Assembly: GCA_964590995.1 (NCBI GenBank)
Contig: CAZPYY010000002.1
Coordinates: forward strand, 1 to 53,026
Direction of reading: 5' to 3'
Source of the DNA: an uncultured Planctomycetia bacterium
GTDB lineage: Bacteria; Omnitrophota; Gorgyraeia; Duberdicusellales; 4484-171
Length of the DNA: 53,026 nucleotides
Shown: positions 4,309 to 42,665 of the stretch, piece by piece
How positions within the stretch are numbered: position 1 is the first letter of the stretch
Layout: each line of letters opens with the position of its first letter
The notes under the pieces: model-generated
The model's input: only the letters and a program-made list of their open reading frames with translations
Database searches by the model: none
What the model was told of the DNA's origin: nothing
Program-made: the position numbers and the translations under genes

Positions 4309-5334
4309 ATGTATTACATCGCTTTAGGTAATTTTGCTATATTTCTAGATAATTTAAAGAAGGATTATATTGTCTATTTGCCGGTAAAGAAGGGTGAGCA
4401 GTGTCTTTATCAAGAGCATGATTCTCTCGGTGATGATGTTGTAATCGGCGAGGTAAGAGCCTTAGAGCCTTTAAAGTCATTTTTTTACCGGGCAAGAGAA
4501 GTAGTTGCCGAAGGCTTTAAAGAAGACATTCCCCATTCTGGCGATAAGCCCTTAGCTGTAGTTGGCGTTAAAGCCTGTGATTTAAAAGGTTTTAAAGTTC
4601 AAGATCATGTCTTCCAAAATCAAGATTGCCCAGAACCTTTCTACAATAAAGCCCGAGAAGAAAATCTTATTATTTCCGCAGACTGTACCTGCGCAATTGA
4701 TAGTTGTTTCTGTCTAGCCTTGGGCCTTAAGCCACATCCCCAAGAAGATTTTGACCTTAACCTATCTGAAGTCAAAGGTGGTTTTGTTGTTGAGTCTGGT
4801 TCTAAGAAGGGAGAGGTCCTTATCAGTAAAAATTCTTCACTGTTTAGCGATGCTGGTAAGGAAGAGATTGAAGAGAAGGAAAAACAGAGACTTAAGGTAA
4901 TAAGCGCAGTAGATAAGAATACTAAAACCAATGAAATTCCTAACCAAGATAGTTTCGAAGGCATTATTGAGAAGAATTATGATGCCAGCATTTGGAAAGA
5001 TGAGGCTGAAACCTGTGTTGAGTGCGGAGCCTGTAATGTAATTTGTCCTACTTGCCATTGTTTTCTTTTGTATGACCAGAAAGACGGTAAAAGGATGGCT
5101 CGCCTGCGGATTTGGGATTCATGTATGATAAAAGATTTTGCTAGAGTTGCTGGTGGAGCTAACCCCCGCGAGAGGCTCTGGATGAGATTAAGAAACCGAT
5201 TTGAGAAGAAGTTTGATTTCTTTCCCAAAGTTGCTGATGTTTATGCTTGCACCGGCTGCGGCCGTTGTATCCGGGCTTGTCCGGCCAAGATAGATATTAG
5301 AAAAGTATTAAATAAATTAGTAAACAGTGATTAA
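4309..5334 (+). CDS. Fe-S subunit, sulfhydrogenase beta (HydB) / AsrA-like 4Fe-4S dicluster protein
   Basis: CVECGACNVICPTCHCF and CTGCGRCIRACP ferredoxin motifs. The size and N-terminal domain match the beta subunit of Pyrococcus sulfhydrogenase and anaerobic sulfite reductase subunit A. It is paired with a gamma/AsrB-like gene. Confidence 0.7.
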   Translation: MYYIALGNFAIFLDNLKKDYIVYLPVKKGEQCLYQEHDSLGDDVVIGEVRALEPLKSFFYRAREVVAEGFKEDIPHSGDKPLAVVGVKACDLKGFKVQDHVFQNQDCPEPFYNKAREENLIISADCTCAIDSCFCLALGLKPHPQEDFDLNLSEVKGGFVVESGSKKGEVLISKNSSLFSDAGKEEIEEKEKQRLKVISAVDKNTKTNEIPNQDSFEGIIEKNYDASIWKDEAETCVECGACNVICPTCHCFLLYDQKDGKRMARLRIWDSCMIKDFARVAGGANPRERLWMRLRNRFEKKFDFFPKVADVYACTGCGRCIRACPAKIDIRKVLNKLVNSD

Positions 5335-6719: not shown

Positions 6720-7636
6720 TTTTAGTTTATCTTATAGTATTTGGTTTTTTGGCAACAGCAGTTATTGGGTTGTTGGCTAGTTGGATAGACCGTAAGGTTA
6801 CTGCCCGGGTTCAATATCGAGTAGGGCCGCCAATATTACAGCCTTTAATAGATATTGTAAAGCTTTTAGGTAAGGAGACCCTTATCCCTCGCGGTTCCTC
6901 GAAAACAACATTTTTGTTGGCGCCAGTTATTGGTTTCGCCAGTGTAATCTTAGTATCTACTCTTTTGTGGTTAAACAATATCAACCCCGGCAAGACTTTC
7001 CTTGGCGATTTAATAGTAGTTTTGTATTTATTAACTATTCCTTCAATGAGTATTATTATTGGCGGGTTTGCTTCTCGTAACCCCTTAGCTAGTTTAGGTG
7101 CATCTCGGGAGATGAAACTCATCTTAAGTTATGAACTCCCTTTTGTCTTAGCTATATTAGTTCCGATTATAAAATCTAACTTTTCTTTACGCTTAGGTGA
7201 GATTATAACTTTCCAGGCTCAAAATGGAGTAATCTTGGGAAATTTATCAGGGATATTGGCTTTTATTGTACTTATAATGTGTATGCAGGCAAAATTAGCT
7301 TTAGTCCCTTTTGATATTCCTGAAGCTGAGACCGAGATAGTTGGCGGTCCGCTAATAGAGTATTCAGGAACAGGGCTGGCTATTTATAGACTCACTAAAA
7401 ATATGCTTTTATTTGTCTTACCATTCTTTTTAATGATTCTTCTTATGGGTGGTTTAAGATTTGATGGGATACACTTACTTTATGGAATATTAAAGTATGT
7501 TGGTCTGGTTGCCCTTATAACAGTTATTAGAAATACCAATCCTCGAGTGAGGATTGATCAGGCAATGCGGTTTTTCTGGGGTCCAATGAGTGTAATTGCT
7601 ATAATTTCAGTTGTTTTAGCATTAATCGGAAGGTAG
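6716..7636 (+). CDS. Membrane subunit, NuoH/HycD/MbhM/EchB family
   Basis: 306 aa, about 8 TM helices. Motifs DRKVTARVQYRVGP and PFDIPEAETEIV are hallmarks of the NuoH family. Confidence 0.85.
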   Translation: MILVYLIVFGFLATAVIGLLASWIDRKVTARVQYRVGPPILQPLIDIVKLLGKETLIPRGSSKTTFLLAPVIGFASVILVSTLLWLNNINPGKTFLGDLIVVLYLLTIPSMSIIIGGFASRNPLASLGASREMKLILSYELPFVLAILVPIIKSNFSLRLGEIITFQAQNGVILGNLSGILAFIVLIMCMQAKLALVPFDIPEAETEIVGGPLIEYSGTGLAIYRLTKNMLLFVLPFFLMILLMGGLRFDGIHLLYGILKYVGLVALITVIRNTNPRVRIDQAMRFFWGPMSVIAIISVVLALIGR

Positions 7637-7637
7637 T

Positions 7638-8078
7638 ATGAGTGTAAAATTAAAAGCATTATTAAAATCACCTTGGGTTTTTCATCTTTCTACCGGGAGT
7701 TGTAATAATTGCGATATTGAGATATTAGACTGTCTTACTCCTAGGTTTGATGTTGAAAGGTTTGGAATGCTTTTAGCTGGGAGCATAAAGCATGCCGACG
7801 TACTCTTAGTTACTGGTTCAGCTAATAGAAAATCAATGGAGCGAGTCAAGAGATTATATGAGCAAGTACCTAAGCCTTGTTTGGTAGTGGCAATTGGAGA
7901 GTGCTCTTTATCTCGAGGTATGTTTATACATAGCTACAATTGTCCGGTTCCGATAGATAAGATTATACCAGTAGATGTTTACATACCGGGATGTCCGCCT
8001 AAGCCAGAGGCTATCATTGCTGGTGTGGTTAAATTGGTCGGAAAGGTAGAAGATACGCTTAAGAAGAAGGGAAAGTAA
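7638..8078 (+). CDS. [NiFe] hydrogenase small subunit, NuoB/HycG/MbhJ type
   Basis: CNNCDIE, GECS and PGCPPKPE provide the four Cys ligands of the proximal (N2-like) 4Fe-4S cluster. Confidence 0.85.
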   Translation: MSVKLKALLKSPWVFHLSTGSCNNCDIEILDCLTPRFDVERFGMLLAGSIKHADVLLVTGSANRKSMERVKRLYEQVPKPCLVVAIGECSLSRGMFIHSYNCPVPIDKIIPVDVYIPGCPPKPEAIIAGVVKLVGKVEDTLKKKGK

Positions 8079-29063: not shown

Positions 29064-29885
29064 ATGGAAGCAATTAAAGCTTATCTAGAGAGGATCAAAG
29101 ACCTTCCAATATTAAAGAAAAAGGAAGAGATTGAATTTATTCGGAAAGCCAAGCGGGGTAGCCGGGCAGCTCGGCGTAAAGTAATTAATTGTAACTTAAA
29201 GCTAGTTGTAAGCATTGCCAAACACTACTCTCACCATAACCTTTCTTTAATGGATTTAATTGCTGAAGGCAACATCGGCCTTATGCGGGCTATTGATAAG
29301 TTTGATGCCCGTAAAGGTTACCGTTTTTCTACCTATGCTGCTTGGTGGATACGTCAAGCAGTAACCCGGGCCCTTATCGATCAAGGTAAGACTATTCGTG
29401 TTCCGGTTTACATGAGTGAGCTTATTGCAAAGCATAAACGGGCTAAAGAGGCCTTACGTCAGAAACTAAGCCGGGAGCCTCGACGAGGCGAAGTTGCCAA
29501 GCGTCTGAAGGTAAGTGTAGATAGGGTGGCTGAGATTGAGCTTTGGACTCAGAAGAAGTCTTCCCTAGATGCACCAGTAGGTGGTGACGGGGATTCACAG
29601 CTTGCTGATTTTATTGCTAACGATGAAAGTGCGATGACAACCTCGACTGCAGATGACATCTTTAATCGCGAAAAGATAGAGGAACTTCTTAGTTTTACTA
29701 CGGGGCGCGAAAGATTAGTTTTAGATTTACGTTTCGGGATAACTAATGGCAGACCCCATACTCTAGCTGAGGTAGCTAAAGCGTTAAAGGTATCTCGAGA
29801 AAGAATACGGCAAATTGAAAAAGATGCTCTTAAGAGGCTGCGCACTTATGTTGTTGACCAACAGAAGAAGAAGATAGAAACCTAA
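29064..29885 (+). CDS. RNA polymerase sigma factor, sigma70 family (short RpoD/RpoS-like, regions 1.2-4)
   Basis: Region 2 ([28 protein letters not shown]) and region 4.2 ([18 protein letters not shown]) are present. 273 aa, no region 1.1. Confidence 0.85.
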
Positions 29886-30420: not shown

Positions 30421-30493
30421 GCCCCTATAGCTCAAATGGACAGAGCACGGCCCTCCTAAGGCTGGGATCCCTGTTCGACTCAGGGTGGGGGCA
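30421..30493 (+). tRNA. tRNA-Arg (anticodon CCU)
   Basis: Folded by hand into a cloverleaf. Acceptor stem GCCCCTA/TGGGGGC, D-stem GCTC/GAGC, anticodon stem CGGCC/GGCTG with loop CTCCTAA (CCT at 34-36), T-arm CCCTG-TTCGACT-CAGGG, discriminator A. No CCA is encoded. Confidence 0.85.
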
Positions 30494-30504
30494 CGATAAA
30501 AATG

Positions 30505-30532
30505 TTGACAAGATAGTTAGTTAGGATAGAAT
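30505..30532 (+). promoter_or_regulatory. Sigma70-type promoter (TTGACA-16-TAGAAT) driving the B12 riboswitch/transport operon
   Basis: TTGACA at 30505-30510 and TAGAAT at 30527-30532, about 30 nt upstream of the riboswitch. Confidence 0.6.
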
Positions 30533-30559
30533 AAATTTGTTCTTTGGAAGTTGGAATTA

Positions 30560-30740
30560 TTTTTTTCGGTGCCGTAAGGCATAATAGGGAACTCCGTGAG
30601 AATCGGAGACACTCCCGGTGCTGTAATCCCGTCCGCCTTAGGCGGAAGCTCGTTTAACATTATTGAGGTCACTACCCGAGATAGGGTGGGAAGACTGTTA
30701 AAAGGGCGGGAAAGTCAGAAGACCTGCCGAGAAGAATTAA
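30560..30740 (+). promoter_or_regulatory. Cobalamin (AdoCbl-type) riboswitch aptamer
   Basis: Conserved core AATAGGGAA..CGTGAGAATC..CCCGGTGCTGTAA..GTCACTA..GGGAAG and a canonical B12 box AGTCAGAAGACCTGCC at 30713-30728. B12 transport and salvage genes lie downstream. Boundaries are approximate. Confidence 0.85.
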
Positions 30741-30805
30741 GTTTAGGTTTTACGCGGAATAATAGCCTAAAATTTTTTATTTCCGGGCCAAGAAAACAGG
30801 GTGCA

Positions 30806-30834
30806 CCCCGACATAACAGTCGGGGTTTTATTTT
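30806..30834 (+). terminator. Intrinsic terminator acting as riboswitch expression platform
   Basis: Hairpin CCCCGAC-ATAACA-GTCGGGG followed by TTTTATTTT, ending 5 nt before the ATG at 30840. Confidence 0.8.
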
Positions 30835-30839
30835 GTCCA

Positions 30840-31700
30840 ATGAAGAAAGTAATTTTACTTATCAACTTAGTTTTAGTATTCACTCCTTCTCTGCAAGAAA
30901 CCTCAATATCTTCTGAGGTTACCCAACAGAGAATTATCTCAATTGCTCCGGCTACTACAGAGATTCTATTTAGTTTAGGCTTGGACGATGAGATTGTGGG
31001 TGTGACTACATTTTGCAACTACCCCGAAGAGACTCAAAACAAAGAGAGAGTAGGTACATTTAGTCAGCCAGGTATCGAGAGAATCCTATCCTTAAGGCCA
31101 GATATAGTCTTTGCTACTGGGCTAGAGCAGGCATCCGTTGTTGATAAGTTGAGAAAAGTAGGATTAAAGGTTTATGTTAGCGACCCGGCAAGTTTCAAAG
31201 AGTTATTTCGTTCAATAAGGGAAATTGCAAAGCTTATTCATAGAGAGCAGGAAGCTGACTCATTAATTGGCCAGATGGAATCAAGGATTAAGCGAATTAA
31301 TGATAAGGTTAAGCTTATCCCCCAAGAGAAGCGGCTGAGCGTATTTATTGAAATCGGGATTGATCCTTTGATGAGTGCGGGTAAAGGCTCTTTTATCGAT
31401 GAGCTAATTACTCTAGCCGGAGGCATAAATATAGCTAGTGATCTTTCCCGAAGCTATAGTTATTTTAGTAGTGAACAGGTATTGAGGCGTAATCCCGACT
31501 GCATTATTCTTGGCTATATGGATAAAGAATGGGATAAGGCAGAAGTCAAAGATAGGTTAGGTTGGGAGAATATTTCAGCAGTAAAGAATAATCGTATATA
31601 TAGCGATATAGACCCAAATCTTTTTTTTCGACCTGGGCCGAGGTTAGTCGAAGGCCTAGAGGTAATCTATGAAAGGTTGTATTTAAATGAACTTAAGTAA
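30840..31700 (+). CDS. btuF: Periplasmic corrinoid/siderophore-type ABC substrate-binding protein (BtuF-like)
   Basis: Signal peptide MKKVILLINLVLVF. RIISIAPATTEILFSLGL and PDIVFA motifs belong to the cluster-A binding-protein family. It is riboswitch controlled. The start was moved from the track's 30801, which lies inside the terminator. Confidence 0.75.
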   Translation: MKKVILLINLVLVFTPSLQETSISSEVTQQRIISIAPATTEILFSLGLDDEIVGVTTFCNYPEETQNKERVGTFSQPGIERILSLRPDIVFATGLEQASVVDKLRKVGLKVYVSDPASFKELFRSIREIAKLIHREQEADSLIGQMESRIKRINDKVKLIPQEKRLSVFIEIGIDPLMSAGKGSFIDELITLAGGINIASDLSRSYSYFSSEQVLRRNPDCIILGYMDKEWDKAEVKDRLGWENISAVKNNRIYSDIDPNLFFRPGPRLVEGLEVIYERLYLNELK

Positions 31701-32649
31701 CCAAAAAAAAATTTTAATATTATTTTTGATCTTATTAGTTGGTATAGCCTTGGGGATTTGTTATGGTTCGGTAAAGATCCCTCTCCGAGAGCTATTTTCT
31801 CAGGCTAATCGAAATATCTTACAATTACGCTTAGCAAGAATTGTGCTTGGTCTGCTTGCCGGAGCTGGATTAGGTATTTCAGGGACAGTATTGCAAGCGA
31901 TCCTACGAAACCCACTTGCTGAACCTTATTTACTGGGGACTTCAAGCGGAGCTGGGTTTGGTGCTGCCTTAGGAATATTCTTAGGGCTTTCAGCTAGCTT
32001 TCTTCCTTTAACCGCATTTGCTGGCGCCCTATTAAGTATTATTCTAGTATACAATCTGGCCAGACAAAATGGGAGGATTTCCGCTCAGTCACTTATTTTG
32101 TCCGGGGTAATTGTAGCGATAGCTGTCTCAGGGCTAATTGTATTTTTGGTCTCTATATCAAGCAACCAAGCTTTACGTGGAATACTCTGGTGGTTATTAG
32201 GTAGTTTAGAAATTTATAATTTTAAACTTCTTTTAATAGTTGGTGCTATAGTTGGGCTGGGAATTGTGCCGATTTTTATCCTATCGCAAGATTTGAATGC
32301 CATAAGTATTGGCGAAGAGGAAGCTATACATTTAGGTATAGAGATAGAGACGGTAAAAAAAATATTATTCGTTGTAACTGCCTTAATTACCGGAGCCTTA
32401 GTTTCAGTTACCGGAATAATTGGATTTGTCGGTCTAATTATTCCCCATATGATGAGAATGGTTGTCGGTCCTAATCATAAAATTCTTATTCCAGCAACTT
32501 GTTTGGCTGGAGCAGCATTCTTAATTTTATCCGATACCTTAGCCCGTAGCCTTTTTCCACCTATTGAGATCTCTATCGGGGTTATTACCTCTTTAGTCGG
32601 GGCGCCAATTTTTATATTTTTGTTGAGAAGAGAACAGAGAGTTAAATAG
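31687..32649 (+). CDS. btuC: ABC transporter permease, FecCD/BtuC family
   Basis: 320 aa polytopic protein. RNPLAEPYLLGTSSGA and GFVGLIIPHMMR motifs. Confidence 0.8.
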   Translation: MNLSNQKKILILFLILLVGIALGICYGSVKIPLRELFSQANRNILQLRLARIVLGLLAGAGLGISGTVLQAILRNPLAEPYLLGTSSGAGFGAALGIFLGLSASFLPLTAFAGALLSIILVYNLARQNGRISAQSLILSGVIVAIAVSGLIVFLVSISSNQALRGILWWLLGSLEIYNFKLLLIVGAIVGLGIVPIFILSQDLNAISIGEEEAIHLGIEIETVKKILFVVTALITGALVSVTGIIGFVGLIIPHMMRMVVGPNHKILIPATCLAGAAFLILSDTLARSLFPPIEISIGVITSLVGAPIFIFLLRREQRVK

Positions 32650-32652
32650 TCT

Positions 32653-33456
32653 ATGAGTGTTTTGTTAAAAGTGAATAATTTATCTGGTGGTTACGGCCAA
32701 GAGCCAGTGATAAAAGATGTTTCTTTTGATGTAAAAAGGGGTGATTTCTTAGGAATCATTGGCCCTAATGGTTCAGGTAAATCTACCTTGCTTCGGTTAA
32801 TGAGTAAAGCTCTTTATCCCCAGGAAGGAAGAGTAGATTTTGAGGATAAAGATATAAGAAGAATAAAGCTTAAAGAGCTCTGTCAGAAGATTGCCTTTGT
32901 CTCTCAAGAGACCCTGATTAATTTTTCATTTACGGTTTGGGAAATTGTGCTTATGGGGCGAACTCCGCACCTTAGGCGACTTCAATTTGAAAGCAGTAAA
33001 GATTTAGCAATTGCTAAAAAAGCTCTTTCATCGACAGACTCATTACAGTTAAAAGCTAAACAAATAAATCAATTGAGTGCTGGAGAACGCCAGAGAGTTA
33101 TTATTGCTAAGGCTTTAGCCCAGGAGCCAATTCTTTTGTTGTTAGATGAGCCGACTTCGCACTTAGATATTGGGCATAAGATTCAGATATTGGACTTACT
33201 AAAGAAGCTGAATAAAGATACTGAGCTTACAATAATTTTAGTTATACATGATTTGAACCTGGCCAGTGAATATTGTAGCCGACTTATCTTGCTTAATCAG
33301 GGAGGGGTATTTAAAGATGGTGAGCCTTCTTCGGTCTTGACTTACCAGAATATCGAAGCAGTTTATAAGACTGCTGTGGTAGTAAATAAAAATCCTTTTT
33401 CTTCTAGACCATATGTAGTATTAGTTTCAAAGGAAAATAAATGCCGACAACATTAA
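32653..33456 (+). CDS. btuD: ABC transporter ATP-binding protein (BtuD/FepC-like)
   Basis: Walker A GPNGSGKST, signature LSAGERQR, Walker B LLLLDEPTSHLD. Confidence 0.8.
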   Translation: MSVLLKVNNLSGGYGQEPVIKDVSFDVKRGDFLGIIGPNGSGKSTLLRLMSKALYPQEGRVDFEDKDIRRIKLKELCQKIAFVSQETLINFSFTVWEIVLMGRTPHLRRLQFESSKDLAIAKKALSSTDSLQLKAKQINQLSAGERQRVIIAKALAQEPILLLLDEPTSHLDIGHKIQILDLLKKLNKDTELTIILVIHDLNLASEYCSRLILLNQGGVFKDGEPSSVLTYQNIEAVYKTAVVVNKNPFSSRPYVVLVSKENKCRQH

Positions 33457-34046
33457 TTTTAATAAGACATGGGCAAACTGATTGGGGCCAGCAAAGAAGG
33501 TATTGTAGTTTTACCAATATCGAATTAAATGCCGCTGGCAAGAGTCAAGCTGATAAGCTTTCGCAAAGATTGGGCCGGGAAGTAATCGATAAGATTTATT
33601 CAAGCGATATCAAAAGGGCATATCAATTTGCTGGTTTAATCTTGAAAAACCCCTCCATTGAGAAGCTTAAAAGTTTTAGGGAGGTAGATTTTGGCCATTT
33701 TGAGGGTTTAACTCATCACGAGATTATGGATAAGTACTCGGGAGTTTACCAAAATTGGCTGAATAATCCTTATGATGTTAATATTCCCGGCGGTGAGAGT
33801 TTAAAAGATTTAGCAAAGAGAGTAAGGGGCTCACTGGAGGAGATCCTGTCTTTAAATTCCGGCTTAACTATTGCAATTTGTACTCACGCTGGCCCGATAA
33901 GAGTAATCTTATCTGATGCCCAGGGCTTGGGGTTGGATAAGATTTGGCAGGTAAAGGTAGATTGTGCTAGTTTAAGTAGAGTTGAATTTATTAATGGTAA
34001 GGCCAAAGTGATCGCGGTAAACGATATTGGACATTTAAATGGGTAA
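33441..34046 (+). CDS. cobC: Histidine phosphatase family protein, alpha-ribazole phosphatase-like
   Basis: LIRHGQTDW catalytic RHG motif and a later H (CTHAGPIR). It sits between btuD and cobU. Confidence 0.7.
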   Translation: MPTTLILIRHGQTDWGQQRRYCSFTNIELNAAGKSQADKLSQRLGREVIDKIYSSDIKRAYQFAGLILKNPSIEKLKSFREVDFGHFEGLTHHEIMDKYSGVYQNWLNNPYDVNIPGGESLKDLAKRVRGSLEEILSLNSGLTIAICTHAGPIRVILSDAQGLGLDKIWQVKVDCASLSRVEFINGKAKVIAVNDIGHLNG

Positions 34047-34626
34047 GATTACTTTTATAGTTGGCGGAGCAAGAAGCGGTAAGAGTACTCAGGCTGTTAA
34101 ATTAGCAAAGGCAATAAATAAAAAGGTTGCTTTTATCGCTACCTGTCTGCCTTGTGATAAAGATATGAGTAAGCGGGTTGCACTTCATAAGAAGGTCCGG
34201 CCTTCTGCTTGGTCGGTTTTTGAGGAGCCAAGAGATATTACTTCTTTGATAAAGTTAAAAAAAATAGGTTCTAAGTTCGATATTATTATTATTGATTGCC
34301 TTACTCTTTTTGTATCTAATCTTCTCCTAGAAGGTTTTAAGGGCAGCATTGTTGAGGAGAGGGTAGATGAGATGCTGAAAACTCTTAAATCAATAGGGGC
34401 TAAGTCGATTATTGTCGCTAATGAGGTTGGTCTCGGTGTACATCCCAGGACCAGGCTCGGAAGAAAGTTTAGGGATTTAGCCGGAAGAGTAAATCAGATT
34501 GTGGCTAGTAAGTCTGATAAAGTGCTTTTTATGGTTTCAGGATTGCCCCTGGAGCTTAAGGCCTGCCTGCCGGCAGGCAGGGAGGAAAGTGATGAGAAAA
34601 ATAGAAAATACTATAAGAGAGATTAG
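34039..34626 (+). CDS. cobU: Adenosylcobinamide kinase / adenosylcobinamide-phosphate guanylyltransferase
   Basis: P-loop GGARSGKS and the VANEVGLGV..R.FRD..G motifs. The last 21 or so residues are read through a GC-rich palindrome and may not be native. Confidence 0.8.
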   Translation: MGKITFIVGGARSGKSTQAVKLAKAINKKVAFIATCLPCDKDMSKRVALHKKVRPSAWSVFEEPRDITSLIKLKKIGSKFDIIIIDCLTLFVSNLLLEGFKGSIVEERVDEMLKTLKSIGAKSIIVANEVGLGVHPRTRLGRKFRDLAGRVNQIVASKSDKVLFMVSGLPLELKACLPAGREESDEKNRKYYKRD

Positions 34627-35668
34627 CGAGATTAACTCTGATTTTATCAACAAGGCTCAATGCCGATTGGATAATTTGACTAAACCCCAAGGAAGTTTGG
34701 GTAGGCTAGAGGAGTTAGCTAAGCTTATTGTCGGTATTACTGAAAAAGAAGATCCGACTTTGGCGAAAAAGGTTATTTTTACCTTAGCCTCTGACCATGG
34801 GGTAGCAGATGAGGGGGTGAGCGCTTTTCCTAAAGAAGTTACTGCACAGATGGTTTATAATTTTCTAAATGTCGGTGCCGGAATAAATGTTTTAGCCAAT
34901 CACGTTGGAGCAAGGGTTGTGGTTGTGGATATGGGAGTTGCTGCTGATTTAGAACCCAAAGCAAATTTAATTATCAAGAAGGTAAACTATGGTACTAAAA
35001 ATATGGCAAAAGAGCCAGCAATGACCAGGGAGGAAGCCATAAGATCGATTGAGGCTGGAATTGAGCTCTTTGAAGATGAATTTGAAATAGGAGTTGATAT
35101 CGTTGGAACTGGTGATATGGGCATTGCCAATACTACCGCTAGCAGCGCTTTAACAGCAGTTTTTACTGGCAAATCAGTTGAAGAGATTACCGGGCGAGGC
35201 ACTGGCGTTGATGACGATACTTTTAAGAATAAAATAGAAGTTATTAAAAGAGCTCTTGAGTTAAATAAGCCAAACCCAAAAGATCCTATCGATGCCCTTT
35301 CTAAAGTGGGTGGTTTTGAAATTGGAGGATTAGCCGGAATAATTCTCAGGGCGGCTTCGAAGAGAGTTCCAATAGTAATAGACGGTTTTATCTCCGGAGC
35401 TGCCGCATTACTGGCTTATCAATTAGAGCCAAAAGTTAAAAACTATATGATTGCTGCTCATTGTTCCCTAGAGCAGGGGCACAGAGTAGTTCTTAATCAT
35501 ATTGGCCTTAAGCCAATATTGGATTTAAATTTGCGCCTGGGGGAAGGCACTGGCGCAGCTTTGGGGATAAATATTGTTGAAGCTAGTATCAAGATTATAA
35601 CTGAAATGGCTACCTTTAAAAGTGCAGCGGTTTCTCAAGAGTCGCAAAAACAGGAAGCTAAATCTTAA
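34592..35668 (+). CDS. cobT: Nicotinate-nucleotide--dimethylbenzimidazole phosphoribosyltransferase
   Basis: LTKPQGSLGRLEEL, GDMGIANTT and LGEGTGA motifs. ATG 34592 follows GGGAGGAAA. The track start at 34499 adds a non-homologous extension. Confidence 0.85.
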   Translation: MRKIENTIREISEINSDFINKAQCRLDNLTKPQGSLGRLEELAKLIVGITEKEDPTLAKKVIFTLASDHGVADEGVSAFPKEVTAQMVYNFLNVGAGINVLANHVGARVVVVDMGVAADLEPKANLIIKKVNYGTKNMAKEPAMTREEAIRSIEAGIELFEDEFEIGVDIVGTGDMGIANTTASSALTAVFTGKSVEEITGRGTGVDDDTFKNKIEVIKRALELNKPNPKDPIDALSKVGGFEIGGLAGIILRAASKRVPIVIDGFISGAAALLAYQLEPKVKNYMIAAHCSLEQGHRVVLNHIGLKPILDLNLRLGEGTGAALGINIVEASIKIITEMATFKSAAVSQESQKQEAKS

Positions 35669-35681: not shown

Positions 35682-36416
35682 ATGAAGAAATTCTTAGTTG
35701 CTTTACAATTTTTAACAATTTTCCCGGTGAAGATTAAGTCCAAGGTGATGCCGGAAGATATTGGTAGATCTTTAGCCTACTTTCCTTTGGTCGGTCTATT
35801 ATTAGGTCTCTTACTATCACTGAGTTTATCTATCTTAAGCCCTTTGCCAAGGCTAGTTAGCGGAGCATTGATCTTAGCAATTTCAATTATTATTACCGGA
35901 GGAATCCATTTAGATGGCTTTGCTGATACTTGTGATGGTCTTTATGGGACTAATCTTCCTGAGAGGAGATTAGCGATAATGAAAGATAGCCGGGTTGGAG
36001 GCATGGGGGTTATTGGCCTGATAAGCCTATTACTTATTAAATTTGCTTTGATTGCGAGCATACCAATAGATTTTCTTTGGAAAGCCCTAATTGTTATGTT
36101 GGTCTTTTCTCGGTGGTCTCAGGTTTTGGCTTGTTTTTCATCTCCCTATGCATGCAAAGAAGGCAAGGGCAAGTATTTTGTAGAGGGAGCTAAGGAAAGA
36201 GAAATTTTTATTGCCAGTTTATTTACCTTAGGGCTATTTTTAATCTTAATACAGATTAAGAGTATTATCCTGTTTCTTATGTCTTTATTGGTAGTATTAG
36301 TATTTATAAAATGGGTAAGAGTAAAGATTAAAGGAATGACTGGAGATACTGTGGGGGCAGTAAATGAAATTGCCGAAGTAGCGGCCCTTTTTTTCTTTTT
36401 AGTTTTAATAAAGTAA
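35682..36416 (+). CDS. cobS: Adenosylcobinamide-GDP ribazoletransferase (cobalamin synthase)
   Basis: 244 aa polytopic protein. LQFLTIFPV, HLDGFADTCDG and GMTGDTVGA motifs. Confidence 0.85.
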   Translation: MKKFLVALQFLTIFPVKIKSKVMPEDIGRSLAYFPLVGLLLGLLLSLSLSILSPLPRLVSGALILAISIIITGGIHLDGFADTCDGLYGTNLPERRLAIMKDSRVGGMGVIGLISLLLIKFALIASIPIDFLWKALIVMLVFSRWSQVLACFSSPYACKEGKGKYFVEGAKEREIFIASLFTLGLFLILIQIKSIILFLMSLLVVLVFIKWVRVKIKGMTGDTVGAVNEIAEVAALFFFLVLIK

Positions 36417-36441
36417 ACCGATAAACGAAGGAGGTATTAGG

Positions 36442-36573
36442 ATGAAGAAGAAAACATTGAAAAAAGAAACAGTCAAGAAGGGAAAAACCCCAGTTTCTTA
36501 CCGTTTAAAGTGTAAGAGAACTGCTAATGGGTTATCACATTACGTGCCAGCAGAGAAGAAGGCACTAGTATAA
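36442..36573 (+). CDS. Unannotated 43-codon ORF: lysine-rich small peptide (candidate radical-SAM substrate/precursor)
   Basis: Translated by hand as MKKKTLKKETVKKGKTPVSYRLKCKRTANGLSHYVPAEKKALV*. AAGGAGG at 36428-36434 lies 7 nt before the ATG. It is below the 60-aa cutoff of the ORF track and sits directly upstream of the rSAM/SPASM gene. Confidence 0.5.
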   Translation: MKKKTLKKETVKKGKTPVSYRLKCKRTANGLSHYVPAEKKALV

Positions 36574-36656
36574 TTTCGTAGACTTTTAAATAGGCTTTAA
36601 TTCTATTGAGGGATGAGTATGATACATATCCTCTGGATAGCGACAAGGAGAGCTTT

Positions 36657-38009
36657 ATGCAAGGCACTAATTTAAACGAAAAACTACTACAGAGAGAGGA
36701 TATTAGTAGAGGTAATAAGTTATTGATTGATCCCGACAATGTATTTTGGGCTCTTACCTTCGGTAAAAGTATCAATAAAGACGCTGGTCAGAAGGTGTTT
36801 TCATTATACGCCAGGATGAAGAACAAACTTGATGTTTCGATGCATGACTTCAGGTTTAAAATGAAGCTGAATTCAGTTTATATTAACCCTACCGATAGGT
36901 GTAATGCTGATTGCCCCTATTGCTATGTTCCGGCATCAAGAAGAAAAAAGGGGAAGGATTTAAGCGAGAAAGGTCTTCTCTATATTCTAGATAAGATTGA
37001 CCGATATTTTCGTAATAATCCTAATTATCCCAAGATTAAACCAATAATCATATATCACGGCAGCGAACCTCTTTTAGTTAAAGATAGAATATTCTCTTCA
37101 ATCGAGAAGTTCAAGAAACGATTCCATTTCGGGATTCAGACTAATGCTATTTTGTTAACCAAGGCTGATGTTGAATTCTTAACGGCTCATAAGATAAGTG
37201 TAGGTATATCTTTAGATTCTATTAACCAAGGAGTGAATGATTATACCCGGAAATCTTCCCGAGGCAGTAATTATAAAAAAGCAATTCAAGCCCTTAAGTG
37301 GTTCAATGGCTATGGGGGTTTAAATATCATTGCAACTATCACTAAGCACAATGTAGAAGACCTTACTAAGCTAGTCAGTTTCGCCCACTCTAAGAAAGTA
37401 CCGTGCATCCTTCTTAATCCAGTAAGAGCTACTCGAAAATCTACTCAAAAGTTACGCCCAAGCCAAGAAGATTTAACTAAGAATTTCATAAAAGCGGTTA
37501 AAAAGGCTATTGATCTATCAAAAAGTTCAGGCCGGAGGATAATCATTGGTAATTTTTCTAATATTATCTTAGGCATAGTAGCTCCCTTAGCCCGCAGGCT
37601 TATGTGTGATATCTCGCCTTGTGGTGGCGGAAGGTGCTTTTTCGCTATCACTGCTGGTGGGAATATAATTCCTTGCGGGGAGTTTATAGCCCTTAAGGAG
37701 TTTTATGGTGGCAATATCTTTAGCTCATCAATAAAAAAAGCTATCAACTCAGCTCCATTTAAAAAAGTAAGGTCAAGAATGGTCGAGAAGATTCCAGAGT
37801 GTGATACTTGTGCCTATCGAAATATTTGTGGAGCACCTTGTCCGGCTGAAGTCTACTCTTTATCAAAAGACCTAAACACAAAGTCACCTTACTGTGATTT
37901 CTACAAGGATATAATAAACTATGCTTTTAAATTAATTAGTGAAGATAAGACCAAGCACCTTTTCAGAAGAGAGGCTTTGGAAAATATTAGATATGAATAC
38001 AGGCTTTAA
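36657..38009 (+). CDS. Radical SAM enzyme with C-terminal SPASM domain (peptide-modifying / AslB-like class)
   Basis: CNADCPYCYV (CX3CX2C). The full SPASM pattern is present: CFFAITAGGNIIPC (C..GX4C), CDTCAYRNICGAPC (CX2CX5CX3C) and a later C. ATG 36657 with AAGGAG 6 nt upstream is preferred over the track's TTG at 36606. Confidence 0.8.
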   Translation: MQGTNLNEKLLQREDISRGNKLLIDPDNVFWALTFGKSINKDAGQKVFSLYARMKNKLDVSMHDFRFKMKLNSVYINPTDRCNADCPYCYVPASRRKKGKDLSEKGLLYILDKIDRYFRNNPNYPKIKPIIIYHGSEPLLVKDRIFSSIEKFKKRFHFGIQTNAILLTKADVEFLTAHKISVGISLDSINQGVNDYTRKSSRGSNYKKAIQALKWFNGYGGLNIIATITKHNVEDLTKLVSFAHSKKVPCILLNPVRATRKSTQKLRPSQEDLTKNFIKAVKKAIDLSKSSGRRIIIGNFSNIILGIVAPLARRLMCDISPCGGGRCFFAITAGGNIIPCGEFIALKEFYGGNIFSSSIKKAINSAPFKKVRSRMVEKIPECDTCAYRNICGAPCPAEVYSLSKDLNTKSPYCDFYKDIINYAFKLISEDKTKHLFRREALENIRYEYRL

Positions 38010-38011
38010 AA

Positions 38012-38713
38012 GTGAATAATTTAATGACTATATCTTCTTGGAGCGGGGGAAAGGATAGCTGCCTTGCTTGTTATAAAGCTATAAAAAATGGCCAGCCAGT
38101 AGAATACCTCCTTAATTTTATATCTCGAGAGTCTAAACGCGGGTGTTTTCATGGAATTGAGTCTAAGCTCCTAAATTTACAGGCTGAGGCGATAGGTATT
38201 CCTCTGATTCAAAGAGAAGTTAGTCCTGATATGAAGAAATATGAAGAGGAGTTTAAACAAGCAGTTTCTGAACTAAAGATCAAAGGTGCAAAAAGGATGG
38301 TTTTCGGAGACATTTATTTAGAAGAACACAAGAGTTGGGTTGAGCGGGTTTGCCGGGAAGTGAAAATAGAGCCTTTGGAGCCATTATGGGGTATTCCACC
38401 GGAAGAAATTGCGATGGATTTTATCAGCCGGGGATTTAAGGCAGTTATTGTCAGCTGCAAAGCTGCTTCCTTAGGTGAAAAGTTTATTGGCAGTTATTTC
38501 GACAATAACTTTTTAGAAAAACTTAAGGAACGGAATATCTGCCCTTGCGGAGAGAATGGTGAATTTCATACTTTTGTTATTGACGGCCCGATATTTAATA
38601 AGAAGATCGAGATAACAGAAAGTCAGGCGATTTTTAAAAAAGGATTTTGGGAGCATTGGTTTTTAGATATTAAGAATTATCAACTTAAAGAAAAGGAGGT
38701 GTCAATAACATAA
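38012..38713 (+). CDS. PP-loop ATP pyrophosphatase, MJ0570/Dph6 (diphthine--ammonia ligase-like) family
   Basis: SWSGGKDSCLA PP-loop and GENGEFHTFVIDGP motif typical of the ATP_bind_4/MJ0570 family. 233 aa. Alternative ATG at 38024. Confidence 0.7.
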   Translation: MNNLMTISSWSGGKDSCLACYKAIKNGQPVEYLLNFISRESKRGCFHGIESKLLNLQAEAIGIPLIQREVSPDMKKYEEEFKQAVSELKIKGAKRMVFGDIYLEEHKSWVERVCREVKIEPLEPLWGIPPEEIAMDFISRGFKAVIVSCKAASLGEKFIGSYFDNNFLEKLKERNICPCGENGEFHTFVIDGPIFNKKIEITESQAIFKKGFWEHWFLDIKNYQLKEKEVSIT

Positions 38714-38729: not shown

Positions 38730-38885
38730 GTAGGCAACATTTAATCTGATTTAAGGGAGCCGGAAACTGAGATATTTTTTGGTTTCCTTACCAAATAGGT
38801 AAAAGAAGTGAAGGTGAGATTCCTTCCGCTGTCCCGCAACGGTAATATCTAAATAAAATTAACTAAGATGAGCCCGGCCGATTAC
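38730..38885 (+). promoter_or_regulatory. Probable second cobalamin riboswitch, atypical/short (class-II-like) form
   Basis: The core GAAGGTGAGATTCCTTCCGCTGTCCCGCAACGGTAA (38808-38844) matches the cobalamin GGTG..AA..CC...CCCGC..C.GTAA consensus. The B12-box region is reduced to GAGCCCGGCCG. It lies directly upstream of a TonB-dependent receptor. Boundaries are approximate. Confidence 0.6.
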
Positions 38886-38929
38886 TTATTATGGAAGTAT
38901 TTCCGAGGAGAGAAAAAGGAGGAAGAACT

Positions 38930-40789
38930 GTGAAACAAGTTGGTTTAATAAATTTAATTGTTTATTGTTTATTTTTCTTGACTAGTATCAATTTAGCAGC
39001 TCAAGATGCTGATGGTCCTTATTATACTATTGATTTAAATGAGATTGTAGTTACTGCCTCGCGGATAGAGCAGGACTATAGCGATTCTACCCAAAATATA
39101 AGTATTATTAGCAAAGACGATATTGAGGCTAGCGGGATAACTGAGGTTACTGAAATCTTGGATTTATTGCCTTCAGTCGATATATTGGAATATGGCTCGG
39201 TTGGCTCTAGCCGTTCAGTCCATACCAGAGGGGCTTCATCGAGCCAGACCCTTACTCTTGTGGATGGGAGGCCAATCAATACTCCCCGCGATGGGGCTAC
39301 AGATTTTAACCAAATCTCCCTTTCCAATATTGAAAGAATCGAAGTTCTGCGCGGTCCTGCTAGCAGTATGTATGGAGCCGGTGCTGTAGGGGGGGTTATC
39401 AATATCATTACCAAGAGTGGGGAAGATGAGATACAGGCTAAGTTTTTAAATAAATTCGGCTCTTTTAATACAACGCTGTCTTCTTTAACCCACGGGTACA
39501 AGATTAATGACTTTGATTATTTTATAGCTTATGACTACTTAGCTTCTGATGGTCATAGAACTAATTCCGACTACTCAAGCAACAATATAAATACAAAGTT
39601 TGGCTATCAGTTAGATGAAGACAACCATATTAGTCTATCTAGCGGATATTATGATTCTGATGTGGGAACTCCTGGTTTACTTTCCAATGTGGATGAAAAC
39701 GATCGGCAAGAAACATCCAAAAAGTACCTCGATCTAACCTATAACGGAAAAATGCTCGAAGGACAAGACATATTGGTGAAGTTATTTCATAATACCGATC
39801 GGCTAGAATTTATCGAGACACCAGAACCTATGGATAAAAATACCCATCAAACTAAGATCTACGGCGTAGATACACAAATTTCACAAACTTTATTTGATGT
39901 TTTTCGTACCGCAATAGGATTAAGTTACCAAGAGCACAGGCTTAACAGCTCAAACAGCGGCAAACATACATACGATTTAAAAGGTACTTATCTTGAATCA
40001 GAAGTTGATATTTTTGATAAAAGCTGTTTAAAACTTGGTGTTCGCTGGGATGACTATTCAAATTTTGGAGATAGAATCAGCCCTAGCGCCAATTTAAACT
40101 TCTGGTTATTTGATAAGATAAAAGTCCATGCTCTAGCGGCCAAATCATTCCGTGCGCCCACATTTAATGATCTTCATTGGCCTCAAGAGGACTGGGGTAT
40201 TTGGGGTGGTGTTGAAGGGTCCCCTAATCTTGGTCCAGAGAAAGCTGTTTCTTATGAGGTAGGAATGAGTGGATATTTTTTGGAAAGATTTAAGACAGAC
40301 CTTACTTTTTTCAAGACCAATTTTGAGGATCTGATAGAATGGACAGTTGATGATTCTTGGTGGTGGCGGCCGCAAAATTCTAGCTCAGCCACAACAGAAG
40401 GAGCTGAACTAGAAACGGAGTTTGTTTTACGGGAACACCTCAAGGCCAATCTTAACTACACATATCTAGAAGCTAAAAATAAGGAGACTGGAAAGTGGTT
40501 GATATATCGGCCCCGGCATCTATACAAATTAAAATTATTATATTCACCAACTTCCAAATGTGAAATTGGCTTAAGTGCCATACACAAAACAAAACGGTTT
40601 GCGAACGCAAGTAATACAAGCTTTCTTAAGCATTACACAATAATGAATTTTAATTGCACTTATAAAGTTAATGACTTTCTTCAAATTTTGTTTGAGGCCA
40701 AGAACGTCTTTGACCGGATGTATCAGGAGGAAAGAGATTATTCTATGCCGGGAAGAGCATTCTACGGAGGGGTTAAGTTGACTTTTTAG
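38930..40789 (+). CDS. TonB-dependent outer-membrane receptor (BtuB-like by context)
   Basis: Signal peptide, plug-domain motifs EIVVTASR and IERIEVLRGPASSMYGAGAVGGVINIITK, and a C-terminal beta-barrel ending in F. GTG 38930 follows AAGGAGG and is preferred over ATG 38891. Confidence 0.85.
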   Translation: MKQVGLINLIVYCLFFLTSINLAAQDADGPYYTIDLNEIVVTASRIEQDYSDSTQNISIISKDDIEASGITEVTEILDLLPSVDILEYGSVGSSRSVHTRGASSSQTLTLVDGRPINTPRDGATDFNQISLSNIERIEVLRGPASSMYGAGAVGGVINIITKSGEDEIQAKFLNKFGSFNTTLSSLTHGYKINDFDYFIAYDYLASDGHRTNSDYSSNNINTKFGYQLDEDNHISLSSGYYDSDVGTPGLLSNVDENDRQETSKKYLDLTYNGKMLEGQDILVKLFHNTDRLEFIETPEPMDKNTHQTKIYGVDTQISQTLFDVFRTAIGLSYQEHRLNSSNSGKHTYDLKGTYLESEVDIFDKSCLKLGVRWDDYSNFGDRISPSANLNFWLFDKIKVHALAAKSFRAPTFNDLHWPQEDWGIWGGVEGSPNLGPEKAVSYEVGMSGYFLERFKTDLTFFKTNFEDLIEWTVDDSWWWRPQNSSSATTEGAELETEFVLREHLKANLNYTYLEAKNKETGKWLIYRPRHLYKLKLLYSPTSKCEIGLSAIHKTKRFANASNTSFLKHYTIMNFNCTYKVNDFLQILFEAKNVFDRMYQEERDYSMPGRAFYGGVKLTF

Positions 40790-40890: not shown

Positions 40891-40897
40891 ATTTTTG

Positions 40898-41929
40898 ATG
40901 GAGTGCGAAGAGATTAAAAAAATAATCCCTAAGTATTTTCAACATACTGCTAGCGCTGAAGAAATTCAAGTAGTAGAAGAGCATCTTTGCGTCTGCCATG
41001 ATTGCCGCACGGTTTTGGGCGAGCTAATGGATAAGGCTTCAGAGGCTGAAGAGGCAGCAGAAGCTCATTCACAAGAGCAAGCAGAACCTCTTCCGAAAGA
41101 GAAGGCAAAGCCTCCTCTTGAGGAAGAGAAAGAGGAGCCTCCGAAAGAGAAGGCTGAAGAAAAGAAGGAAGAAGAGGTGCCAGCTCCTGGAGCCAAAGAG
41201 ATAGAGGAGAAGCGACCGGAGGAAAGTCCTGAGGAGCGAGGTCTCCCCAAAAAGGGACGTAGTGAAGGGGAAGAAGATTTGGAGTACTTCCCCGGAGAGG
41301 ATCTTGAGGCTTCAATGGATAAGGTTGATGATATTTTAGGAAAAACTGAACCAGCTAAGGGAGACTCCGGAGATAAACCCAAAGAAGTAGAACCTATTGC
41401 TCAGGATAAGGAAGAAGAGAAGGCGGAAGAGACAACAGAAGAAAAGGAAGAAGTATCCGAACCTATTTTAGAGGAAAAGGAAGATGAAGATTCTTCTTTT
41501 GAGATAATATCAGATTCTCCTGTAATCTCTAAACAGGAACTTCCTGCTGAGAGCGATATAGAAACTTTAGGCACAAAAGATCTTGAGCCGGTCGCAGAGG
41601 ATGCTAAAGAGCCTGAAGAAAAAACAGAGCTTCCTCCGGAAGAAGAGAAGGCGGAAGAGACAACAGAAGAAAAGGAAGAAGTATCCGAACCTTCATCAGA
41701 AACCGGCATAGAACTTAAAGAAGAGAAACCAGAAGAACCGGCGCCAAAAGAAGAAGGTGCGGTGTCTTTAGAAGAAGGTGGGGAGAGCCAGGAGTCATTA
41801 GAAGAGGTATCCCATTCTCTGGACGGGATGCCCTTAGAGAAGAGTAATGCAGGTCTTCTAGAGTACTTATGCTTAGTCGCTGGTTTGGGTGTTTTGGGAT
41901 TTCTAACCTATCTTCTTTTAAAAGGTTAA
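40898..41929 (+). CDS. zf-HC2 anti-sigma-factor-like protein with long acidic E/K/P-rich repeat region and C-terminal TM anchor
   Basis: N-terminal C..(x)..HLCVCHDC (H-x3-C-x2-C) putative zinc finger. About 270 aa of low-complexity acidic sequence follows. The C-terminus LLEYLCLVAGLGVLGFLTYLLL is a TM helix. Confidence 0.65.
   Translation: MECEEIKKIIPKYFQHTASAEEIQVVEEHLCVCHDCRTVLGELMDKASEAEEAAEAHSQEQAEPLPKEKAKPPLEEEKEEPPKEKAEEKKEEEVPAPGAKEIEEKRPEESPEERGLPKKGRSEGEEDLEYFPGEDLEASMDKVDDILGKTEPAKGDSGDKPKEVEPIAQDKEEEKAEETTEEKEEVSEPILEEKEDEDSSFEIISDSPVISKQELPAESDIETLGTKDLEPVAEDAKEPEEKTELPPEEEKAEETTEEKEEVSEPSSETGIELKEEKPEEPAPKEEGAVSLEEGGESQESLEEVSHSLDGMPLEKSNAGLLEYLCLVAGLGVLGFLTYLLLKG
41411..41464 (+). 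repeat. 54-bp perfect direct repeat, copy 1 (inside the anti-sigma-like CDS)
   Basis: GAAGAAGAGAAGGCGGAAGAGACAACAGAAGAAAAGGAAGAAGTATCCGAACCT is identical to 41639-41692. It encodes EEEKAEETTEEKEEVSEP. Confidence 0.9.
41639..41692 (+). repeat. 54-bp perfect direct repeat, copy 2
   Basis: Identical base-for-base to 41411-41464 and 228 bp apart, so the two copies are in frame. Confidence 0.9.
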
Positions 41930-41933
41930 TCCA

Positions 41934-42665
41934 GTGAAGTTTATATTTCTTGGCATTGTGCAGGGGATAACCGAGTTCCTGCCGATAAGTAGTTCCGGGC
42001 ATCTATTTCTCATACAAAAATTACTAAAAATAGAGGGAGATCTTCTTCCTTTTTTTGTTTTTCTGCACTTAGCAACACTTCTAGCTATAATTGTCTTTCT
42101 TTTTAAGAAGATCAAACTATTTTTTAAAGCAAGACCTCTGTTGAATATTCTTCTAATCACCTTAATAAGCGGAATTATGGGATTAGGGATTAGATTTTAT
42201 CTTAAGGAGTTCTTGGGCAGTACATTTATGCTAACTTTCTGCTTTTTAACTAATGCCGGAATATTGCTTAGCATCCGGCCTTCTTCGGGGGAAAGAAATA
42301 TTAGTAGCATAAATTTTAAAGATGCTCTTTTTTTAGGCTTCTTGCAGGGGTTTTCTCCCTTGCCGGGTATATCCCGTTCCGGCATTACTATTGCCGGATT
42401 ATTAAGAAGAGGCTTTAAGCGCAGCGAAGCTTTTATTCTCTCTTTTTTAATGGCAATCCCTCTTATCATCGGTGCTTTTTTTGTTGAGTTTAAAGAATTG
42501 GGTCAGAGTAATCTTTCTTTGCAAAATATGGGCTTGGGGCTTGTAGCTGCTTTTGTTTTCGGATTATTGGCTTTAAGTTTGGTTAGGAAAACCTTAATAA
42601 GTAAGAAGTTTAAAAACTTCGCTTATTATTGTTTAATATTGGCTTTACTTACTCTAATCGTATGA
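41934..42665 (+). CDS. uppP: Undecaprenyl-diphosphate phosphatase
   Basis: GITEFLPISSSGH and PGISRSG motifs. 243 aa polytopic protein. GTG start. Confidence 0.85.
   Translation: MKFIFLGIVQGITEFLPISSSGHLFLIQKLLKIEGDLLPFFVFLHLATLLAIIVFLFKKIKLFFKARPLLNILLITLISGIMGLGIRFYLKEFLGSTFMLTFCFLTNAGILLSIRPSSGERNISSINFKDALFLGFLQGFSPLPGISRSGITIAGLLRRGFKRSEAFILSFLMAIPLIIGAFFVEFKELGQSNLSLQNMGLGLVAAFVFGLLALSLVRKTLISKKFKNFAYYCLILALLTLIV

Follow-up and report, generated by a model that had tools for sequence, protein, structure and literature searches.

The locus considered here lies in a 53,026-nucleotide stretch of Omnitrophota DNA (contig CAZPYY010000002.1, assembly GCA_964590995.1), which was analysed as a whole and is called the window below. 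Three consecutive forward-strand genes make up the locus: cbpA, encoding a 43-residue peptide (36442-36573); cbpB, encoding a 450-residue radical S-adenosylmethionine (SAM) enzyme with a SPASM domain (36657-38009); and a gene for a PP-loop ATP pyrophosphatase of the DUF71-B12 subgroup (38012-38713), which is Dph6-like but not Dph6. The original prediction took the three for a single peptide-modifying cassette inside a cobalamin (B12) locus. Our results make it probable that the region holds two separate B12-linked modules, cbpAB and DUF71-B12, in one operon for corrinoid salvage and nucleotide-loop assembly, and that what looked like a cassette of three genes is two independent units standing side by side. 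Both modules have been catalogued before, cbpA/cbpB as a real pair in NCBIfam and DUF71-B12 in a 2012 comparative-genomics paper. The window contributes a further member, with a short-form CbpA that scores below the family cutoff and with cbpAB placed beside DUF71-B12.

The start codon of cbpA stands 7 nt downstream of a Shine-Dalgarno sequence, AAGGAGG (36428-36434), and the 43-residue reading frame and its ribosome-binding signal were both present as first described. The peptide contains 14 Lys or Arg among its 43 residues. Residues 1 to 18 are Lys-rich and variable, and are followed by the core SYRLKCKRTANGLSHY and the tail VPAEKKALV. Residues 19 to 39 match TIGR04164, a 25-position peptide model named modified peptide precursor CbpA ('cobo_pep'), with 19.9 bits (E 3.7e-4) against an NCBIfam cutoff of 35 bits. 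Besides this match, the gene call draws on homologous upstream open reading frames (ORFs) and on a codon-position test. For the comparison, CbpB relatives were collected from a species-representative collection (one genome per species), which gave at least 588 pattern-matched stretches; the best 80 loci of these (labelled L001 onward) and the window form a cbpB-anchored set of 81 loci. At each locus, cbpA was called as a member of a jackhmmer family among the stop-to-stop segments upstream of cbpB on the same strand. Such an ORF lies directly upstream of cbpB in 77 of the 81 loci (the window and 76 of the 80 relatives), its frame and position beside orthologous radical-SAM genes being kept. 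This recurrence, together with the pairing curated by NCBIfam, bears out the earlier proposal of a genuine small gene whose peptide is the likely substrate of the neighbouring enzyme. A six-frame search of the four cbpA-negative loci with hidden Markov models found no cbpA; in three of them the contig breaks off, leaving less than 380 nt of upstream sequence. In L009 (1-4371), a CbpB homologue (58% identity) has 3 kb of sequence upstream with cbpA in no frame, and is itself followed by btuFCD and btuB.

Between pairs of cbpA sequences, codon positions 1, 2 and 3 differ at 0.17, 0.10 and 0.60 per site, and the invariant core residues take the full set of synonymous codons (all four of Gly and all six of Leu). 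Both patterns mark cbpA as translated and as kept by purifying selection, which a spacer would not be. The RNA structure of the true spacer, between cbpA and cbpB, is indistinguishable from that of shuffled sequence (z = -0.81). Mean pairwise identity reaches 73% in the core and 19% in the preceding 18 residues, 33% of which are Lys or Arg, so CbpA has a two-part architecture of variable leader and conserved core; the original prediction had seen no obvious leader or core, which no longer holds. The full core consensus is [AV]ISY[RH][LM]KC[A]KTANGL[ST]H[FY]V(MYGDV)Px[KE]Kxx[LV], with the short version SY[RH][LM]KCxxTANGL[ST]H[FY]. Within it N-G-L-[ST]-H is invariant, and 60 of 61 distinct sequences keep the core Cys. 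The segment MYGD(V) is missing from the window and from L001-L006, which together are the seven loci most similar in CbpB, and is carried by the other 70 CbpA peptides; its absence from the window's clade suggests that it is dispensable. The missing segment was also considered as the cause of the low TIGR04164 score and was rejected, since the long forms score lower still (15.5 bits or no match); alignment of the short form to the model needs no gaps. Additional Cys residues occur in the leader of many Omnitrophota peptides (KKCQKR-type) and as CCCC in L011, and the window leader contains none. In L006 (4489-4626), a CC pair precedes the core Cys position by 10 residues.

CbpB matches TIGR04163, named peptide-modifying radical SAM enzyme CbpB ('rSAM_cobopep'), with 518.3 bits (cutoff 375) over residues 39-450 of a 467-residue ORF that opens at TTG 36606. 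The start is better placed at ATG 36657, because homologues of about 450 residues align from MQGTNL and because AAGGAG precedes that ATG; other residue numbers refer to this 450-residue form. With this start, the 83-nt gap between cbpA and cbpB reported previously is reproduced. An extension ahead of the CX3CX2C motif (CNADCPYC) does exist as predicted, at a length of about 81 residues; the earlier value, about 95, is obtained when the TTG is taken as the start. The motif and the complete seven-Cys SPASM domain described at first sight are both there: the seven Cys (327, 340, 382, 385, 391, 395 and 413) are invariant or nearly so in an alignment of 21 sequences, two further Cys are conserved at 317 and 322, and the Pfam families Radical_SAM and SPASM both match. 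Homologues that NCBI names CbpB come from metagenome-assembled genomes of Omnitrophota, Nitrospirota, Bacillota and Nitrospinota. Beyond its own family, the best NCBIfam matches of CbpB are peptide and protein maturases and range from 102 to 116 bits (DynA 116, PapB 115, HxsB, and the anaerobic sulfatase-maturating enzyme anSME 102), and the tetrapyrrole enzymes NirJ2 and AhbD reach 64.5 and 61.5 bits.

The AlphaFold2 model of CbpB (predicted local distance difference test score, 81.6) has CteB, anSME, TigE, ChlB and SuiB as its best structural matches in Foldseek. Among solved structures, CteB comes closest in sequence profile (94 bits) as well as in fold (template modeling score about 0.67-0.72), and like CbpB it has an N-terminal domain preceding the radical-SAM core. 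That domain of CteB probably falls within the Foldseek alignment, since the full-length alignment is as long as the CbpB query. In the model, the N-terminal domain of CbpB appears to sit where the peptide-binding domains of CteB and SuiB lie, and its first 70 residues contain the conserved motifs IDPDNVFW and SLYxKxKxxLDxxMxDFRF.

Two nucleotides separate the PP-loop gene from the cbpB stop codon, as had been noted, and the gene encodes SWSGGKDSC and CGENGEFHTF, which include the SGGKDS and GEFHTF reported earlier; its product matches PF01902 with 205 bits and belongs to a very large family. The signature GExGE[FY]H is present in all 16 full-length PP-loop neighbours from the collected loci. 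In the DUF71-B12 subgroup, ENGE[F/Y]H replaces the Dph6 motif EGG[E/D]xE, and the genes are found beside B12 transport and salvage genes in many genomes, cluster with btuCDF and cbiB, and anticorrelate with bacterial CbiZ; they were proposed to take part in salvaging corrinoids such as pseudo-B12 or its relatives (de Crecy-Lagard et al. 2012, PMC3541065). The original prediction held that bacterial members have no assigned function, and the B12-salvage role predicted for this subgroup in 2012 corrects it. Experimental work on the function of DUF71-B12 was not found in the literature searched. Three features lead us to place the window protein in this subgroup, namely the ENGEFH signature, a score below the Dph6 cutoff (TIGR03679, 158.4 bits against 197.3) and its B12-gene surroundings. 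It shares with Dph6 the PF01902 fold family, and its closest solved structures are archaeal (3RJZ and 2D13); unlike Dph6, it has a His at the position of the catalytic Glu188, and it occurs in bacteria, which do not make diphthamide (PMC3541065). From the published subgroup it differs in nothing substantive: SGGKDS, ENGEFH and the clustering with btuFCD, btuB and cobU/T/S are all shared, and whereas the published clustering stressed btuCDF and cbiB, the window and related Omnitrophota are fixed at the order cobS-DUF71-btuB. NCBI or JGI gives the name "diphthine--ammonia ligase" to many bacterial homologues that share 63-70% identity with the window protein. This naming is likely a systematic over-annotation, as these homologues have the His signature of the B12 subgroup and cob operons as their setting.

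The separation of the two modules was seen from both sides. A DUF71 gene lies within about 6 kb of cbpB in only 15 of the 81 loci including the window (14 of the 80 retrieved loci by tblastn). Conversely, the window PP-loop protein retrieved a DUF71-anchored set of 38 loci, and cbpA or cbpB was found in none of these 38. Among the 24 of them that span at least 6 kb, cobS and cobT accompany the gene in 21, btuB in 20 and btuD in 21. The gene comes after cobS or cobT there and in most cases ahead of btuB; L081 and L082 (Omnitrophota) and L083 (Syntrophaceae) show cobS-DUF71-btuB or cobT-DUF71 without cbpAB. Compared with the common order cobS-DUF71-btuB, the window carries cbpAB as an extra block of 1.6 kb. 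Since both modules live in cob operons, their occasional adjacency is expected. In the two loci most syntenic with the window, L001 (9919-10590) and L004 (9895-10587), a second DUF71-B12 paralogue with GENGEFHS follows btuB and is 37-42% identical to the window copy. The first DUF71 copy of L001 is about 60% identical to that of the window, against about 90% for CbpB, CobS and CobT.

In the window, all genes of the operon lie on the forward strand. A tRNA-Arg(CCT) gene (30421-30494) is directly followed by a promoter-like site, TTGACA-16-TAGAAT (30505-30532), recognised from 11 of 12 consensus matches only, and then by the cobalamin riboswitch aptamer that heads the operon (30550-30745; RF00174, 94.6 bits, E 2.4e-22). 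A terminator-like hairpin at 30805-30826, with an 8-bp stem (6 GC pairs) and a T-run, TTTATTTT, is probably the expression platform of this riboswitch. The corrinoid ABC importer btuF-btuC-btuD comes next (30828-33456; about 30828-31700, 31687-32649 and 32653-33456), identified by the Pfam families Peripla_BP_2, FecCD and ABC_tran and by tblastn to BtuF, BtuC and BtuD cluster representatives. It is followed by cobC, of the alpha-ribazole phosphatase type (33441-34046; His_Phos_1), and by cobU, the cobinamide kinase/guanylyltransferase (34039-34626; Pfam CobU, 181 bits). The lower-ligand phosphoribosyltransferase gene cobT (34592-35668) was recognised by tblastn to CobT cluster representatives; its ORF opens at TTG 34499, and the start is placed at ATG 34592 because the CobT match begins there. 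The adenosylcobinamide-GDP ribazoletransferase gene cobS (35682-36416; Pfam CobS, 196 bits; TIGR00317, 166 bits) immediately precedes cbpA, and the original prediction that no terminator is visible after cobS stands: terminator-like sites were found on the forward strand neither between cobS and the cbpAB-DUF71 genes nor inside them. Spacing and the absent terminator suggest that btuFCD-cobCUTS-cbpAB-DUF71(-btuB) forms one riboswitch-controlled transcript. Corrin-ring, cobalt or chelatase genes were not found across the 53-kb window, whose B12 genes are those of salvage and the nucleotide loop only.

Downstream of the PP-loop gene, a second cobalamin riboswitch had also been proposed. A match to RF00174 does occur at 38780-38903 (forward strand, E 1.4e-4), at 25.1 bits and under the gathering score of 31.5 bits. 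This element is probably real but divergent, since above-threshold riboswitches occupy the same DUF71-btuB gap in L085 (35.9 bits) and L095 (RF01482, adenosylcobalamin, 63.4 bits). The gene for a TonB-dependent receptor of the btuB type (38891-40789; Plug, TonB_dep_Rec_b-barrel; TIGR01779, 249 bits, below its cutoff) closes the region. Its true start is probably GTG 38930 and not ATG 38891, judging from the AAGGAGG ahead of the GTG, from the signal-peptide-like N-terminus MKQVGLINLIVYCLFFLTSINLAAQ and from the removal of the overlap with the weak riboswitch match. Beyond btuB, at the position of the second DUF71-B12 paralogue of L001 and L004, the window encodes a 344-residue acidic protein (40895-41929) with an N-terminal zf-HC2 domain (anti-sigma-type), a low-complexity middle rich in Glu, Lys and Pro, and a hydrophobic C-terminal segment. 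A BacA/UppP gene (41934-42665) follows it, and a sigma-70 family gene is found upstream of the operon at 29064-29885.

Across the 81 loci, all ORFs were clustered and the recurrent clusters annotated. Co-directional cobalamin genes stand beside cbpAB in 77 loci from several anaerobic phyla, which agrees with the alternative raised in the original prediction that the B12 context matters and makes this context the dominant signal. The recurrent neighbour families, where identifiable, are all cobalamin, cobalt or corrinoid genes in the same direction: ATPases of the CbiO or BtuD type (48 loci), CbiX/CbiC (42), CobT (36), CobS (33), CbiQ (31), CobD, CbiB and CobB (26 each), CobU, CbiM and CbiL-type methylases (25 each), CobC and CobQ (21 each), BtuB and BtuF (18 each), BtuC (16) and CobA (13). 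The position of the pair within these operons varies, for example cbiO-cbpAB-cbiX in Nitrospirota, cobU-cbpAB-cobT, cbiB-cbpAB-cobB, and cobS-cbpAB-DUF71 in the window's clade. As in the window, a cobalamin riboswitch heads the operon in 4 of the 11 Nitrospirota cbpAB loci examined. No recurrent protease, exporter, leader peptidase or immunity gene was found near cbpAB among the 81 loci.

Under the reading of two independent modules, the following course of events can be proposed for cbpAB. Radical-SAM/SPASM enzymes begin their chemistry with the abstraction of a hydrogen atom after reductive cleavage of SAM. CbpA is translated, as the codon-level selection shows, and its variable Lys-rich N-terminus may serve as a recognition handle that docks on the N-terminal domain of CbpB, about 70 residues long. 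CbpB, using reductive SAM cleavage and two auxiliary Fe-S clusters, would then abstract a hydrogen atom and introduce a modification within the core, the most likely product being an intramolecular cross-link through the near-invariant Cys or through the pair of His and aromatic residue. The absence of a recurrent exporter or protease gene nearby suggests that the product remains intracellular, where, judging from gene context, it may serve cobamide biosynthesis or the handling of cobalt or corrinoids when B12 is scarce. The family to which the PP-loop protein belongs adenylates carboxylates or carries out the reverse reaction on amides, and the presumed substrate of the DUF71-B12 module is an intermediate of corrinoid salvage, not CbpA. 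A conserved core behind a variable leader resembles peptide-derived cofactors or small functional proteins, unlike antibiotic peptides of the class made by ribosomes and modified after translation (RiPPs). More tentatively, and with the odds against it, modified CbpA could be an unrecognised component of anaerobic cobamide metabolism, either a peptide-derived cofactor or ligand, which would make it one more system of the PQQ (pyrroloquinoline quinone) or mycofactocin type, here dedicated to B12, or a small Cys/His carrier of corrinoid or cobalt that matures through a radical-SAM cross-link. A core shared across phyla, the lack of export genes, riboswitch control and insertion between cob or cbi genes are compatible with such a component and prove nothing.

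It is important to consider the observations that weigh against this two-module picture and against CbpA as the substrate of CbpB. Counting the window, DUF71-B12 directly adjoins cbpA or cbpB in eight loci, and both orders occur. L009 truly has cbpB and no cbpA, CbpA of L006 has Gly where the others have the conserved Cys, and four of the 81 loci have no cobalamin neighbour. Every CbpA scored here falls below the TIGR04164 cutoff, the peptides other than that of the window ranging from no reported match up to 21.6 bits, so that this value is an operational threshold missed by the whole set of lineages. The PqqD-like winged helix taken as the criterion for a RiPP recognition element (RRE) has three strands and three helices; the N-terminal model of CbpB shows three strands (12-35) and only one long helix (27 residues, 41-67), and no PqqD/RRE element was detected in the N-terminus by sequence (Pfam, NCBIfam and a PDB profile search with residues 1-72, E up to 10). 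Finally, the literature searched yielded no experiments on CbpA/CbpB, and the TIGRFAMs 2013 paper gives the general method only, so that modification, product and role of the pair are all inferred.

Comparison with known systems places the pair closest to its own NCBIfam entry. The window enzyme exceeds the equivalog cutoff, and a core-bearing short ORF lies directly upstream on the same strand within a cobalamin operon. The differences are that the window peptide would not be named by a cutoff-based annotation pipeline (19.9 bits against 35), that it is the short form without MYGD(V), and that cbpAB stands between cobS and DUF71-B12 in a salvage-type operon. As is established for PqqA/PqqE of pyrroloquinoline quinone (PQQ) synthesis and MftA/MftC of mycofactocin synthesis, a short precursor with an invariant modified part adjoins a radical-SAM/SPASM enzyme, the system is embedded with the pathway that it serves, and an antibiotic-style hypervariable core is absent. 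Unlike those systems, cbpAB comes without a separate or sequence-detectable fused RRE of the PqqD type and without a recurrent peptidase that could set a small molecule free, the CbpA core is not at the extreme C-terminus, and CbpB scores far below the PqqE and MftC cutoffs. The near-invariant Cys recalls the substrates of the thioether maturases that act on sactipeptides, ranthipeptides and SCIFF (six cysteines in forty-five residues) peptides. However, CbpA has a single core Cys and is not Cys-rich, L006 lacks a Cys at that position, and CbpB reaches only 77.8 bits against the SCIFF maturase (cutoff 425), 115 against PapB (340) and 70.6 against StsB (625). The misfit to these three classes, already pointed out in the original prediction, is therefore confirmed, with one core Cys and with maturase models at 78-115 bits against cutoffs of 340-625.

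The explanation that survives best among the alternatives, improbable as we judge it, is that CbpB acts on a corrinoid or tetrapyrrole intermediate in the manner of the SPASM/twitch enzymes AhbD or NirJ, with CbpA as a scaffold, carrier or metal- or corrinoid-binding partner. The embedding of the pair in tetrapyrrole (cob/cbi) operons speaks for it, the Nitrospirota pair lies between cbiMNQO (cobalt uptake) and cbiX (chelatase), the near-invariant Cys and invariant His of CbpA are potential cobalt ligands, and CbpB does share some similarity with NirJ2 and AhbD. Peptide and protein maturases nevertheless score about twice as high as these two enzymes and lead the structural matches as well, an additional N-terminal domain of CbpB takes the peptide-binding position of CteB and SuiB, and the window operon covers salvage and the nucleotide loop with no ring-synthesis or chelatase step.

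Slightly lower still do we rate the single three-gene RiPP cassette, in which CbpB would cross-link the peptide and the PP-loop enzyme would adenylate and amidate a carboxylate at its C-terminus or on a Glu side chain. The 2-nt spacing in the window invites it, as do the conserved hydrophobic C-terminus of CbpA, the Glu often found in its tail, and DUF71-type genes adjoining cbpAB downstream in L001, L002, L004, L021 and L059 and upstream in L015 and L020, in two orders and two phyla. The occurrence counts speak against it from both directions, the signature is that of a subgroup found beside B12 transport and salvage genes in many genomes without such a peptide, and chance adjacency is to be expected of two B12-linked modules in cob operons. 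We thus do not uphold the cassette of the original prediction. A small residual probability of an occasional functional link between DUF71-B12 and cbpAB is left by the loci L015 and L020, where DUF71-B12 lies upstream of cbpA, and L021 and L059, where it lies downstream of cbpB.

Less credible again is cbpAB as a passenger under B12-riboswitch control, making a secreted bioactive RiPP or serving a B12-sparing function with no cobamide role. B12 riboswitches are generally known to control B12-independent isozymes too, the four loci without a cobalamin neighbour fit this explanation, and CbpA is as strongly cationic as many antimicrobial peptides. Against it, exporter, leader peptidase and immunity genes do not recur near cbpAB, antibiotic RiPPs usually show the opposite of a core near-invariant across phyla behind a variable leader, and the pair is inserted between consecutive biosynthetic genes (cobU-cbpAB-cobT and cbiO-cbpAB-cbiX). 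That the 43-codon ORF is no gene at all but spacer or leader sequence that goes untranslated between cobS and cbpB, as its omission from a 60-residue ORF track, its sub-cutoff score and its "hypothetical protein" label at best in public databases might suggest, can be set aside, being effectively refuted by the codon-position pattern and the full synonymous codon use, in line with the strong Shine-Dalgarno sequence, the frame and position kept in nearly all loci and the spacer without significant RNA structure.

CbpB relatives are widespread (the stretches collected here come from Omnitrophota, Nitrospirota, Bacillota, Nitrospinota and others) and are bound almost exclusively to cobalamin operons. 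Should the product of CbpA help to make cobamides or to handle cobalt or corrinoids, a peptide of ribosomal origin would join a pathway whose components are thought to be all known, and the short list of peptide-derived cofactor-type systems would grow. For annotation, the curated CbpA cutoff misses the peptide in these lineages, leaving cbpA uncalled or "hypothetical". In public protein sets, the relatives of the 43-residue peptide form 25 clusters that are unnamed or labelled "hypothetical protein"; this, with all tested forms under the cutoff, indicates that cbpA is systematically un-annotated in these lineages. DUF71-B12 genes are probably widely mislabelled as "diphthine--ammonia ligase".

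Some further recurrent genes were observed in the operons that contain cbpAB. The cbi operons of Nitrospirota hold three recurrent ORF families without a confident family match (for example, L025 3378-3719, L044 2006-2791 and L049 8485-9276). One, of 113 residues, lies between cbiM and cbiQ, in the position of cbiN, and has no NCBIfam or Pfam match; the other two are a 261-residue family before cbiM and a 263-residue HD-domain-like family among the genes for CbiL-type methylases. An asparagine-synthetase-like ORF of about 320 residues, comprising the C-terminal synthetase region only, recurs in the cob operons of L015, L020, L023 and L030; it adjoins DUF71-B12 in the first three, and in L030 cbpB and other ORFs intervene. 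A radical-SAM protein of 239 residues is encoded after cbpB in L015 and L020 and is present also in L012 and L030. Examples of this set are found in L020 at 4101-5063 and 7352-8071.

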